Positions 49,741 to 54,182 of a DNA stretch of 64,000 nt are shown here, in pieces. The translations under genes and the position numbers were made by a program. This stretch comes from a virus. Lineage: Duplodnaviria; Caudoviricetes. The notes beneath the pieces are model-generated. The model searched no databases. It was not told the origin of the DNA and saw nothing but the letters and a program-made list of their open reading frames with translations. The first letter of the stretch is position 1. Each line of letters starts with the position of its first letter. The stretch covers positions 1-64,000 of the IMG/VR virus record IMGVR_UViG_3300032017_000001; one strand, given 5' to 3'.

Positions 49741-50015
49741 TGTCCCGCCGGAAGTGCGAGGGCGGTTGCGGCCGGTGGTTGTCGGATCCGGAGTCGATTG
49801 CCCGCGGCTACGGCAGGCAGTGCGCGGAGCGTCTCGGCATCCCGATTGCCTCACCCGCCCGCCGTCTGGCCACCGTCCGCCGACCGCCCGCGATCCGCAC
49901 CACTGATCCGCCGGTCGAGATCCACCCCGACCAGACCGCCCTCGAGCTTCAGCCCCTACAGCCCAGCCTCTGGTCCCTGTGGCCAGCCACCGAATCGAAG
50001 GAGGCCAGACCATGA
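49740..50015 (+). CDS. DUF6011-like protein
   Basis: CGRWLSDPESIARGYGRQC. Confidence 0.6.
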   Translation: MSRRKCEGGCGRWLSDPESIARGYGRQCAERLGIPIASPARRLATVRRPPAIRTTDPPVEIHPDQTALELQPLQPSLWSLWPATESKEARP

Positions 50016-50476
50016 ACGTGACTGAAGGGACGCTGCCTTGCCGGGGCAATGCGGCCCTCTACGACCTCGTGCTGTTCGAGGACGGTGCTTCGCCGGAACG
50101 CCAGCAGGCCGTTCACCGGGCTGTGGTCCTGTGCGCGTCCTGCCCTACCCCGTGCGAGCTGAAGGTCACCGCCGACAGTGGCCCCGCCGAACTGGTCCTG
50201 CTGGAGCCCGGCTGGATGCCGCCCGAGCGTGAAGGCCGGCCGGAGCCGCAGCCGCGCATGCCGGTCCGCCGGAAGCGCGACGCCGGATCGGACATCCAGG
50301 TCGGAGCCGACTACGTGCCCACGACTCGGCGCGTCGCTGTGTGGGCCGGGATGTGCGCGGACCGGGCCGCACTCGGGCACAGCGTCTCGGACATTGCCGC
50401 GGAGCTGTGCGTCAGCGAGGACACCATTACTCGCTTGATCGCTGTGGCGCAGAAGACGCGGGGGCGGGCGGCGTGA
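50012..50476 (+). CDS. WhiB-like protein with C-terminal HTH
   Basis: LPC...AVVLCASCPTPC; SVSDIAAELCVSEDTI. Confidence 0.45.
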   Translation: MNVTEGTLPCRGNAALYDLVLFEDGASPERQQAVHRAVVLCASCPTPCELKVTADSGPAELVLLEPGWMPPEREGRPEPQPRMPVRRKRDAGSDIQVGADYVPTTRRVAVWAGMCADRAALGHSVSDIAAELCVSEDTITRLIAVAQKTRGRAA

Positions 50477-50661
50477 CCCGTTCGTGGCTGCGCCACCCAC
50501 CACGCACGGTGCGCCCGCCGCTGGTCTGCCCGACCGGCCTGCCCCGGTACGCGTCGCGTGCCCTGGCGTGGCTCCCGGCCGGACTCCACACCCAGCAGAC
50601 ACCCCGCCAGTGCACCGCCTGTGACGGCGGCTGGCACCTCACCGAAGGAGACACCCGATGA
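50473..50661 (+). CDS. Small Zn-binding hypothetical protein
   Basis: C...CTACDGGWHL. Confidence 0.45.
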   Translation: MTRSWLRHPPRTVRPPLVCPTGLPRYASRALAWLPAGLHTQQTPRQCTACDGGWHLTEGDTR

Positions 50662-50951
50662 CCGACCAGACCACCACCTACCACATCGAATTCGGGAAGG
50701 TCGGCGAGACCTACCCGGTGCCGCCGATCACGCTCGATCACACCGACCCGAACCAGTTCGCCCGCGCGGTCGCCGAACATGCGATCCCGTACCTGCGCCC
50801 GGTGCTCACGGAGATGGGCCGCCCGGAGCTGGCCGACTGCTTCTTCCGCCGCGACCCGAAGGACCCGACCTACGGGGACTTCCTGTGGATTGATCTGGTC
50901 GGCGACAGGGGCGCGCAGTTCTGCCCGGCCCGGATCACGCCCGCCCCGTGA
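50658..50951 (+). CDS. Hypothetical protein
   Basis: RBS AAGGAG. Confidence 0.6.
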   Translation: MTDQTTTYHIEFGKVGETYPVPPITLDHTDPNQFARAVAEHAIPYLRPVLTEMGRPELADCFFRRDPKDPTYGDFLWIDLVGDRGAQFCPARITPAP

Positions 50952-51031
50952 CCCGCCTGCCGGCCCGCGGCGGCGGCTATCCGCCGCGGGCCTCCCGTCA
51001 GACAACCACCCCAGGAGTCTCAATGACGAAG

Positions 51032-52234
51032 TCAAGCCGCTTGCGTGATCGGCGGGGCGGAGGTGAAGACCCGTCCGTCACGCAGCAGGGCCCACAGCAC
51101 GCTCGCCCGTCGCCGGGCCAGGGCGATGACGGCTTGGACGTGCTTGCAGCCCTCACCGCGCTTTTTAAGGTAGAAGTCCCGGTTCGGGCCCTCGCGCATC
51201 ATGCTGGTCTGCGCGGACATGTAGAACACTCGTCGCAGGCGGCGGCTGTAGCGCTTGGGCCTGTGCAGGTTGCCGGTACGGCGTCCGGAGTCGCGCGGGA
51301 CCGGCACGAGCCCGGCCGCAGAGGCGAGGCGGCCGGCGTCCGCGTAGGCCGACAGGTCGCCGGCGGCAACGACGAACTCCGCCCCGAGGATCGGACCCAT
51401 GCCGGGCAGGGACTCGATGATCTCGGCCTGTGGGTGGGCGCGGAACGTGTCGCGGATCTGCTGGTCGATCCGCTTCAGTCGGTCGTCCAGCGCCAGGATC
51501 TGCGTTGCCAGATCAGCCACGATCTGCGCGGCGACGTCCTCACCGGGCAGCGCGGTCTGCTGGGCCTGTGCGGCCTCCAGCGCGGTCACGGCAACCGAAT
51601 CAGCGCCCCGGACGCTGCGGTTGGCGAGCCAGGCCGTCAGCCTCGCTCGTCCGCGGCGCCGGATCGCCGCCGGGGTCTGGTAGCCCGTCAGCAACACCAG
51701 CGCACCCTTGTGCGCCGAGTAGTCGAAAGCCCGCTCCAGTGCGGGGAAGACCCCGGTGAGCACGTCGCGAAGCCGATTGATCATCCTCACCCGGTCAGCC
51801 ACCAGATCGGAGCGGTGGGCGGTCAGCAGGGCCAGGTCGGCGGCCAGCTGGGCAGGCACGTCGATGGCGGCGAAGTCCCGGCGGTGGCGGGCGGTCTCGG
51901 CGATCACGTAGGCGTCGCGGGCGTCGGTCTTGGCCTCGCCCCGGTAGGCGCCGGACATCCGGTTGACCGTGCGGCCGGGCACGTAGACGGCCCGCTGGCC
52001 GTGGGCTGCGAGCAGGGCCAGCAGCAGCGCGGAAGCCGTGCCGGAAATGTCCACCGCCCAGGACACCTCGTCGGCCAGGTCCAGGATCTCGCCCATGGCG
52101 GTCAGGATCGCCGTCTCGTCGTTCTCGATCTTCTTCGACCACAAGGTCGCGCCGGTCTCATCGACCACCGCAGCCCAGTGGTGGCCTTTACCGGCATCGA
52201 CACCGGCCCATACCCGGGCCTGTCGCTCGCTCAC
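51032..52234 (-). CDS. IS110 transposase (DEDD recombinase)
   Basis: AGVDAGKGHH, AKTDARDA, SLPGMG, RDSG; GTG 52234 after GAGGAGGGG. Confidence 0.92.
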   Translation of the reverse strand: MSERQARVWAGVDAGKGHHWAAVVDETGATLWSKKIENDETAILTAMGEILDLADEVSWAVDISGTASALLLALLAAHGQRAVYVPGRTVNRMSGAYRGEAKTDARDAYVIAETARHRRDFAAIDVPAQLAADLALLTAHRSDLVADRVRMINRLRDVLTGVFPALERAFDYSAHKGALVLLTGYQTPAAIRRRGRARLTAWLANRSVRGADSVAVTALEAAQAQQTALPGEDVAAQIVADLATQILALDDRLKRIDQQIRDTFRAHPQAEIIESLPGMGPILGAEFVVAAGDLSAYADAGRLASAAGLVPVPRDSGRRTGNLHRPKRYSRRLRRVFYMSAQTSMMREGPNRDFYLKKRGEGCKHVQAVIALARRRASVLWALLRDGRVFTSAPPITQAA

Positions 52235-52249
52235 TCGCCCCTCCTCGTT

Positions 52250-52425
52250 CCGCACGGCTTGCCGTCGGCCCGAGGAACACCCCGCTGTCATCTCCGTAAT
52301 CAGCGACCGCACGAAGCGCGCACATCTCAATCAGCAGCCAGGGCGCCCCGGAGGGCCGGGCGGCCACTCCTCGGAAGCCACTGAAGGCAAGAAGCCATAA
52401 GCCACACCCGGCCCTCCCGGGCCGC
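52250..52425 (-). ncRNA. Putative bridge/seek RNA of the IS110
   Basis: 5' GGCCC-GGGA-GGGCC hairpin; segments matching the donor junction and the insertion target; ends approximate. Confidence 0.65.
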
Positions 52426-52446
52426 CTAACAACTTACGGAGCAGCC

Positions 52447-52803
52447 ATGACCACACCCGCCGACGAACTCGCCGCCGCAGTGGAGACGCTGCGGGCCCGC
52501 CTGACCGACCCCGAACTCACCCCAGGGCCGTGGCTGTCCCTCGACCACGGCGACCGGCTCCTCTACGACGGGCCCGGCGCCGAGGACCAACCGCCTGTGT
52601 ACGTCGTCGACGAGCCCATGAGTAACGGCGCCAATGCGGACTACATCGAGCTCATGCACCCGGGCGTCGGGGCCGCGCTCGCCGACTGGCTGGAGACCAC
52701 CGCCGAAGCGCTCGCCGCCACCACGCACCCCGGCTGGCAGGAGTGTGTCGCCTCCAACGCCCTGGCTGTGGCCCGCCAGATCAACGCCGCCGCCCGTCCC
52801 TGA
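52447..52803 (+). CDS. Hypothetical protein (paralog of 32151..32597)
   Basis: NADYIELMHPGVGAALA. Confidence 0.6.
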   Translation: MTTPADELAAAVETLRARLTDPELTPGPWLSLDHGDRLLYDGPGAEDQPPVYVVDEPMSNGANADYIELMHPGVGAALADWLETTAEALAATTHPGWQECVASNALAVARQINAAARP

Positions 52804-52853
52804 CCCGCCCGGCCGCCCCCGCACCGGGGCGGCCCCCACCACCCGGAGACCCG

Positions 52854-54182
52854 ATGACCCAGCTCACCGCCACCTTCACCGTCACGATCAAGACCAAGCC
52901 CGACGGCGACTACTACTTCGACCACGACGACCTCGTCAGGAACGCCGTCCCGTGGATCGAGGGCGGCCTCGACGACCGCGACGACATCGCCGAGGTCACG
53001 ATCACCGAGCAGCCCGCCGCTGTGTCTGCTGCCGTGGCCCCACCCACCAACCAGACCGCCGACGAGGTGGACGCCGACACGGTGGCGAACCGCGCCGCCC
53101 AGGTGATCACCACCATGGGCGCCGAGATCCGCGAGCTGACGCACAGCCGAGACCGCTACCGGTTGGCGTGGCACAACGCCCGTCGCCGAGCAGGGGTGCT
53201 CTCCGCCGAGGTCACCCGACGGGCGCCGCTCCTCGGCAAGTACGCCGCCGAGATCGAGCGGCTGCGCGCCGAGTTGGAGAGCGAGCGTGACGTCTCTCGC
53301 CGACTGCTTGCCCAGCGTCAGGAGATGGCCGAGGAGCGCTACGCCTGGCAGCAGCGGGGTGACCGCGCCGAGGCCGAGCTGCGCCGCATGGCCGACGAGA
53401 CGGCAACCGAGACGACCCAGCCCGCGCGCTGCGTCTGTGGGCACCCCATCGGCCTCCACCACGAAGACGTCTGCCTCCGCACCGACTGTGGATGCGCTGA
53501 CGCGCTGGAGATTAACGCCGTGCCCGAGGCCCTCGAAGCGGTACTGACGGAGCGCTACACCGAACTCGGCAACTCCTTCTCCCGGATGCGGCGCCAGGAG
53601 CAGGGCCCGGACGGGTGGCCCGCAGAGCGCCCCGTCGGCCCGCACCACGTCGCCGAGACGCTGCGGGAGCTGCTGCGGCGGGCGGCCACCGACGGACCCG
53701 GACTCCGCCTGCCCGACCACACCGTCAACGAGGAAGAGACCCCGCCCCCTGCCCCCCGCGACCGCCACCGCGCCGCATGGAACGCACTCACCCCCCAGCA
53801 GCAGGCCGCCTACCTCGCCCAACTCGACAGCGCCGGTGCGCGGCAGGACCAGACCACAACCGACGAGCCGGAGCGCTGCGCCCACTGCACCCACCCCAAG
53901 CGCGACCACGACGGCCGCGCCGACCACCGAGCCAAGCACTCCCCGCTGGTGGCCGGAGACCCCTGGTGCCACGCCTGCGACGGCCCGTGCGACTACGCCG
54001 CCGGGGCGCGGCAGGACCAGACGGCAACCGACCAGCCCGCGCCCGGGAGCACCGAGACCCGCCCCTGCCGGACGTCCGTCTCCGGCGGCACGGTGTGGTG
54101 CTGCGAAGAAGGCGAGACCGACTGCCCGTGCGTCTGCCACCAGCCCGCCGCCGGGGCGCGGCAGGACGGGGCCACCCAGTGA
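52854..54182 (+). CDS. Mosaic hypothetical protein with Cys/His modules
   Basis: Coiled coil plus CVCGH, CAHC and CPCVCH modules joined by GARQD repeats. Confidence 0.6.
   Translation: MTQLTATFTVTIKTKPDGDYYFDHDDLVRNAVPWIEGGLDDRDDIAEVTITEQPAAVSAAVAPPTNQTADEVDADTVANRAAQVITTMGAEIRELTHSRDRYRLAWHNARRRAGVLSAEVTRRAPLLGKYAAEIERLRAELESERDVSRRLLAQRQEMAEERYAWQQRGDRAEAELRRMADETATETTQPARCVCGHPIGLHHEDVCLRTDCGCADALEINAVPEALEAVLTERYTELGNSFSRMRRQEQGPDGWPAERPVGPHHVAETLRELLRRAATDGPGLRLPDHTVNEEETPPPAPRDRHRAAWNALTPQQQAAYLAQLDSAGARQDQTTTDEPERCAHCTHPKRDHDGRADHRAKHSPLVAGDPWCHACDGPCDYAAGARQDQTATDQPAPGSTETRPCRTSVSGGTVWCCEEGETDCPCVCHQPAAGARQDGATQ

Follow-up and report, generated by a model that had tools for sequence, protein, structure and literature searches.

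An IS110-family insertion sequence in a soil phage record very probably encodes an IS621-type bridge RNA in its left end

The stretch of DNA analyzed here (64,000 nucleotides; hereafter the window) carries a natural and probably active IS110-group element of Streptomyces type, and the 203-nucleotide left end of this element very probably encodes a canonical bridge RNA of the kind described for IS621. We base this reading on comparison with homologous elements, in which we observe a conserved structure of two stem-loops, guide segments that change together with the flanks of their own copy, a conserved promoter at the junction of the joined ends, and a recombinase of the IS110 family. An earlier note, made from the letters of the window alone, had proposed that the leader upstream of the recombinase gene encodes a bispecific bridge RNA, and both the covariation of guides with flanks and the conserved two-loop structure now argue for that proposal. 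The layout that the note assigned to the RNA is a different matter, and is weighed below.

The element and its gene occupy the following positions:

51018-52441, minus strand: IS110-family insertion sequence of Streptomyces type, 1,424 bp with one CTCC copy counted
51017-51014, minus strand: second CTCC copy (the first copy is at 52441-52438)
51032-52234, minus strand: transposase/recombinase gene, GTG start, 400 amino acids, stop codon at 51034-51032

The record that hosts the element is a soil-metagenome phage or prophage record, and the insertion lies at CATGGCTG-CTCC-TGGGG. Read on the minus strand, the element runs from GTAAGTT (52437) to CATTGAGA (51018) with CTCC flanking both sides, so that its left junction reads CATGGCTG-CTCC-GTAAGTT and its right junction TCATTGAGA-CTCC-TGGGG. 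A homolog scan with one genome per species gave 80 loci in Streptomyces and Kitasatospora, at 85-94% amino-acid identity, and these share their ends, starting with GTAAGTT and finishing with CATTGAGA adjoining CTCC. Identical or near-identical copies in metagenome contigs agree with these limits, the likeness stopping at 51009/51013 and at 52441. The CTCC and junction assignments of the earlier note were exact, and both the 80 loci and the metagenome contigs confirm the ends. The left end of the element measures 203 nucleotides and the right end extends only about 14 nucleotides past the stop codon; a single copy is present in the 85-kb virus record. One soil metagenome run contains the complete stretch and may be where it came from. 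Four homologs from different genomes (L031, L045, L064, and L076) have right ends reading CATTGAGT-AATCCGATCTCC instead of CATTGAGA-CTCC, which represents either a shared right-end variant that is 12 nucleotides longer or one conserved site that was hit repeatedly. The pre-insertion sequence given above is a reconstruction, since searches for the uninterrupted site did not recover it: the exact 32-nucleotide empty site had no match in viral contigs, BLAST of 50200-53300 against phage records returned only one weak 86-nucleotide match, and none of the contigs of four metagenome runs joins across the element.

The recombinase ORF matches the Pfam families DEDD_Tnp_IS110 (PF01548, 4.8e-48) and Transposase_20 (PF02371, 1.3e-19), and scores 247.7 bits against the NCBIfam model NF033542, 'IS110 family RNA-guided transposase' (cut-off 140). 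Its similarity to the IS621 and ISCro4 structures is distant but significant (E 5e-10 to 4e-12) and lies mainly in the C-terminal domain. In the ISCro4 alignment, KTDARDA aligns with KTDAVDA and the DSG of the query aligns with ESG, which we take to be the position of the catalytic serine; the residue equivalent to E60 falls outside the aligned part. The protein therefore has the make-up of a recombinase that joins a DEDD (RuvC-like) domain to a Tnp domain with its serine. Between the donor loop described below and the GTG start codon, a fold of the single sequence pairs UUCCUCG with CGAGGAG (52236-52277, minus strand), and the CGAGGAG strand of this hairpin overlaps the Shine-Dalgarno sequence of the transposase, so that the hairpin may act as a translational brake on the transposase.

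We aligned 73 leaders, comprising those of 72 homologs and of the window copy (65 distinct leaders; alignment A1). Nearly all columns are conserved apart from two short hypervariable blocks, and both blocks follow the left and right flanks of their own copy, including flanks that do not resemble ATG. For example, a guide reading CAAAGCAG-CU stands in a copy with the flank CAAAGCAG-CTCC, ACCGGUU-CU occurs with ACCGGTT-CTCC, and a right guide reading CTCC-CACAG occurs with the flank CTCC-CACAG. RNAalifold, applied to the 65 leaders, agrees with a structure drawn by hand: both give the long non-coding left end two stem-loops, and in each of these an internal loop is closed by a small hairpin. The drawn structure has 37 pairs with 99.5% of cells paired, and seven pairs are changed on both sides, compared with 2.2 in column shuffles and at most one with slid partners; several co-changes in the comparison may be single events, because the homologs are close relatives (85-94% amino-acid identity). 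The minimum-free-energy fold of the single sequence pairs the guides with each other and with the flanking GUUAGG, an arrangement for which the alignment gives no support. A scan of 50900-52600 against Rfam with E up to 10 returned no bridge-RNA family, only chance miRNA-like matches inside the transposase gene, and the likeness of the leader to that of IS621 therefore rests on layout and not on a shared model. The predicted parts of the RNA are as follows:

52345-52422, minus strand: target-binding stem-loop, found by RNAalifold independently of the hand-drawn structure
52390-52398, minus strand: left target guide AUGGCUUCU (7 nt plus CU), a hypervariable block
52367-52374, minus strand: right target guide CCGAGGAG, reverse complement of CTCC-TCGG
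52280-52343, minus strand: donor-binding stem-loop, from covariation and RNAalifold
52325-52331, minus strand: left donor guide AUUGAGA, which repeats the final 7 nt of the element's right end (7 of 7 positions)
52292-52299, minus strand: right donor guide UUACGGAG, reverse complement of CTCC-GTAA at 8 of 8 positions

In the target loop, 52422-52400 pairs with 52365-52345 as a basal stem of 20 bp, which leads into an internal loop topped by a 3-bp hairpin (52388-52377). Three pairs of the basal stem show changes on both sides, one of them in 27 sequences. The earlier note had drawn a 5' hairpin, GGCCC-GGGA-GGGCC, at the start of the leader; this segment makes better sense as the 5' strand within the 20-bp stem. 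Both sides of the internal loop co-vary with the target. On the left side, the guide and the left flank of its own copy share a mean longest common substring of 6.85, compared with 4.02 in permuted pairs (z = 16.6), and in register the positions -1 to -7 match above background while -8 does not. In the window copy this guide has one mismatch to the site ATGGCTG-CT, a U opposite the site G that adjoins the core. On the right side, positions +1, +2, and +3 match the flank of their own copy in 82%, 84%, and 88% of 49 sites, against a cross-pair background of 64%, 33%, and 38% (z about 11); the variable bases lie directly 5' of a conserved GGAG, and the window copy has one mismatch to its own site CTCC-TGGG, at +2. 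The earlier note had left the fourth guide ambiguous between two candidates, of which CCGAGGAG is the one that tracks the right flanks. The left target guide carries CU, and AG lies within the GGAG of both right guides.

The basal stem of the donor loop pairs CCCUGGCUG with CAGCGGGG (52343-52335 with 52287-52280); an internal loop follows, and the upper hairpin spans 52321-52303. Three basal pairs are changed on both sides (CG to UA, UA to CG, and GC to AU), and the internal loop is complementary to both ends of the element. Among dinucleotide shuffles of the leader, 3.3% contain an exact match of at least 8 nucleotides to the donor junction. Across the aligned leaders the right donor guide varies little or not at all, and the same holds for the left ends of the elements; there is little variation with which to test the donor-guide pairing, because the ends are otherwise nearly invariant. 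The variation that does occur is in L016, L054, and L061, where the right end, the left donor guide, and the putative handshake base of the target loop change together (A, A, and U to G, G, and C). After the left donor guide comes UG, or CG in one homolog, where core pairing would call for CU. Within the upper hairpin, columns 115-120 of the alignment (52317-52312) occur in a long form or are absent, leaving the hairpin 6 nucleotides shorter, in 18 of 65 leaders; the stem persists in either form, so the hairpin is not constrained in length. All four motifs that the earlier note had located (TGGCTGCT at 52340-52333, ATTGAGA at 52331-52325, TTACGGAG at 52299-52292, and CCGAGGAG at 52374-52367) stand exactly at those coordinates, and its two donor guides, left (52331-52325) and right (52299-52292), fit the second stem-loop by covariation and structure.

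Three homologs bear on the extent of the exchanged core. Their right junctions read CTCG (L016 and L081) or CTCT (L040), the left junctions of L016 and L040 are CTCC (that of L081 was not recovered), and the right target guide of L016 is altered to CGAG, fitting its CTCG junction. These junctions, together with the altered guide, place the exchange 5' of the fourth base. Judged from these sequences, the exchanged core is CT, or at most CTC, and the fourth base is part of the right flank; the 4-nucleotide core proposed in the earlier note thus falls. Hiraizumi et al. (2024; PMC11208158) locate the handshake positions of IS621 immediately 3' of the right guides, and the bases at the corresponding places in the window are a U at 52366 in the target loop and an A at 52291 in the donor loop. 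The target-loop base is U where the right end finishes in A and C in three loci with G, possibly through a single event. For the donor-loop base, 37 out of 62 pairs show complementarity to position 7 of the left target guide, with about 26 expected. This covariation agrees with the IS621 handshake rule (PMC11208158), and is suggestive only, since the sequences are related.

The two ends of the element also carry the halves of a predicted promoter that is completed when they are joined:

51030-51035, minus strand: circle-junction promoter -35 hexamer TTGACT, in the right end, overlapping the transposase stop codon
52431-52436, minus strand: circle-junction promoter -10 hexamer TAAGTT, present in 62 of 69 homologs

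Joining the ends gives TTGACT-17 nt-TAAGTT. A -35 of the form TTGAC(T/A) is present in 67 out of 69 homologs, and the spacer is 17 nucleotides in 66 of those 67. One contig of 2,848 nucleotides, which is exactly 2 x 1,424 (L008:6-2602), holds two copies of the element head to tail across one CTCC and, by this arrangement, shows the donor junction CATTGAGA-CTCC-GTAAGTT as DNA; the contig may represent a tandem dimer or else an assembled circle, and the junction may be genuine or a product of assembly. In a compost metagenome, a 1,455-nucleotide contig matches 51013-52441 with 0 differences over 1,429 nucleotides and has another right flank, CTCC-TCGTGTG. The site of this copy, CTCC-TCG, is a perfect match to the right target guide of the window at +1 to +3. 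Near-identical copies with other flanks are present in two soil metagenomes. These copies suggest that the element has been recently mobile and is widespread.

We weighed three other explanations against a canonical bridge RNA. The earlier note had taken TGGCTGCT (52340-52333) as the left target guide, 1 nucleotide from the left donor guide and used with a 4-nucleotide core, and had suggested that this adjacency may mark a distinct programmable architecture. The window copy taken by itself fits that layout, as TGGCTGCT matches the left target plus CT at 8 of 8 positions and CTCC stands at both junctions. However, the corresponding columns of the alignment (92-99) are conserved at 85-100% across 65 leaders with unrelated flanks, and six bases of TGGCTGCT form the 5' strand of the donor-loop basal stem. 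Five leaders with CT changed to TC in this segment have AG changed to GA on the opposite strand, and another change of G to A is matched by C to U. Being near-invariant and compensated in the stem, the segment is therefore structural, and its likeness to the site of the window copy is coincidental. An exact match of at least 8 nucleotides to the 23-nucleotide target window, on either strand, is reached by 11.8% of dinucleotide shuffles of the leader, and so the target match alone is not beyond chance. When guide segments were compared with flanks among the homologs, a check that the earlier note had itself proposed, 52374-52367 tracked the flanks and 52340-52333 did not. The left target guide that does track them lies about 58 nucleotides upstream, in the first internal loop, and hence the target and donor guides are not adjacent. 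With the CTCG and CTCT junctions ruling out a 4-nucleotide core, and with the guides in the order left target, right target, left donor, and right donor, as in IS621, we consider the proposed new layout refuted.

It is also conceivable that the leader is only a structured 5' UTR for transposase expression, that the protein itself reads CATG...CTCC, and that the guide matches are incidental. In agreement with this, CTCC is found at all sites and CATG at most of them, and the UUCCUCG/CGAGGAG hairpin downstream of both loops overlaps the Shine-Dalgarno sequence of the transposase. Against it, segments of the leader change variant by variant together with flanks that do not resemble ATG (CAAAGCAG, ACCGGTT, AACAGGG, and CACAG), which excludes a fixed preference of the protein and makes a mere 5' UTR highly improbable. 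The remaining explanation accepts the bridge RNA and regards the window copy as an off-target or decaying insertion that is no longer mobile. Each target guide of this copy has one mismatch to its own site, as such an origin would predict, but zero to two guide mismatches are usual at natural IS110 sites (Durrant et al., 2024; PMC11208160). Moreover, the ORF, both guide loops, and both promoter halves are intact, and an identical copy stands at a different site in an unrelated metagenome, all of which makes an immobile copy very unlikely. Overall, the evidence favors a canonical bridge RNA in a probably active element.

The site into which the element inserted is the start region of a phage gene:

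52447-52803, plus strand: phage ORF, 118 amino acids, with the insertion site in its GGAG-N5-ATG start region

The insertion leaves GGAG-CAGCC-ATG in place, with GGAG at 52438-52441, and the GC content of the ORF by codon position (0.76/0.53/0.88) fits a coding frame from a genome rich in GC. Searches of Pfam and PHROGs found no family for the ORFs that flank the insertion site, including this one; an ORF further upstream (49979-50476) gave sub-threshold helix-turn-helix matches. An inverted repeat rich in GC at 50960-51000, GGCCCGCGGCGGCGGC...GCCGCCGCGGGCC, separates the plus-strand ORF at 50658-50951 from the insertion site and looks like a terminator, which would put the element between a terminator and the ribosome-binding site of the next gene. 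The same kind of site recurs among the homologs, where CAT lies 4-7 nucleotides from CTCC in 39 out of 46 distinct sites. AUG is kept in most variants of the left guide and GGAG in both right guides, suggesting that the clade targets Shine-Dalgarno sequences with their start codons, read as the reverse complement (CAT-N4-6-CTCC). The IS900/IS116 group has long been known to prefer CATG-N4-6-CNCC for insertion. Our literature search found no work linking bridge RNAs to IS900 and none stating the old target consensus. The content of the guides would account for the preference of these elements for places between a ribosome-binding site and a start codon.

The spacing within these sites is less strict than the guides would lead one to expect. 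An identity of at least 6 of 7 between guide and site is reached at some offset in 47 out of 52 pairs (null 16%), and only 26 of those 47 are in register. One extra base, of any identity, separates the matched 7-mer from the core in 12 out of 52 pairs (null 4%), and for about 40% of natural sites the left guide fits only when moved by 1-2 nucleotides. Identical copies within one genome use sites of different spacing, and some negative offsets arise from guides with two CU dinucleotides. A search of five homolog genomes for further copies yielded few additional sites. The shifted sites are not accounted for by strict in-register pairing. We tentatively propose, as a possibility that we hold to be rather doubtful, that the left target guide in this actinobacterial clade tolerates a shift of 1-2 nucleotides relative to the crossover point. 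If true, such tolerance would be a bridge-RNA explanation of CATG-N4-6-CNCC, as well as a mode of recognition not described for IS621. No description of register slack at natural sites was found in the bridge-RNA literature searched, and this slack is the only feature here that may be of interest to engineers of bridge recombinases.

We propose that the element works as follows. Excision to a circle would join the right and left ends at CT(CC), and the joined ends would build the TTGACT-17-TAAGTT promoter, from which the leader would be transcribed. The resulting RNA would be bound by the recombinase and would drive recombination by base pairing, with the first stem-loop (52422-52345) acting as the loop for target binding and the second (52343-52280) as the loop for donor binding, in which AUUGAGA and UUACGGAG would read the two ends of the element. 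Exchange would take place at a core of CT, or CTC at most, and the C(C) after it would be no more than a conserved part of what both right-hand guides read. For the field, the analysis offers a well-supported natural bridge RNA of a high-GC host, resolved to single bases by natural variation alone, together with a comparative data set of about 40 distinct natural guide variants paired with their sites.

Among actinobacteria, IS116 of Streptomyces clavuligerus and the IS900/IS901/IS902/IS1110 group are IS110 elements whose older descriptions predate bridge RNAs. Going by those descriptions only, we presume that the window element resembles them in its length of about 1.4 kb, an ORF of roughly 400 amino acids, the lack of terminal inverted repeats, and insertion in one orientation between Shine-Dalgarno sequence and start codon. 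The closest match in layout is to IS621 and ISCro4 (Durrant et al., 2024, PMC11208160; Hiraizumi et al., 2024, PMC11208158), with which it shares a predicted non-coding RNA in the left end, upstream of the recombinase gene, a target loop that precedes the donor loop, left guides on the 5' side and right guides on the 3' side, a CT core, putative handshake positions just 3' of the right guides, and a predicted promoter built by the circle junction. The left target guide is likewise 9 nucleotides including CU, as in IS621 (PMC11208160). In contrast to IS621 and ISCro4, the recombinase of the window is only distantly related, the basal stems are rich in GC and far longer, canonical core pairing is missing from the left donor guide, and the natural sites of the clade show 1-2 nucleotides of register slack. 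The right target guide is about 7 nucleotides with a fixed GGAG, compared with 4 nucleotides in IS621, and longer right target guides occur in other orthologues (Durrant et al., 2024; PMC11208160). With the IS1111 group and its seekRNA the element shares an RNA-guided DEDD recombinase (Siddiquee et al., 2024; PMC11187229). That group carries, downstream of its transposase gene, a long non-coding region, and its guides come in reversed order (PMC11187229); the window element has no such region, its stop codon being at 51034-51032 and its end at 51018, and we therefore set this assignment aside. In summary, what the window holds is a bridge RNA of a known kind in an uncharacterized Streptomyces element, and no new kind of system.
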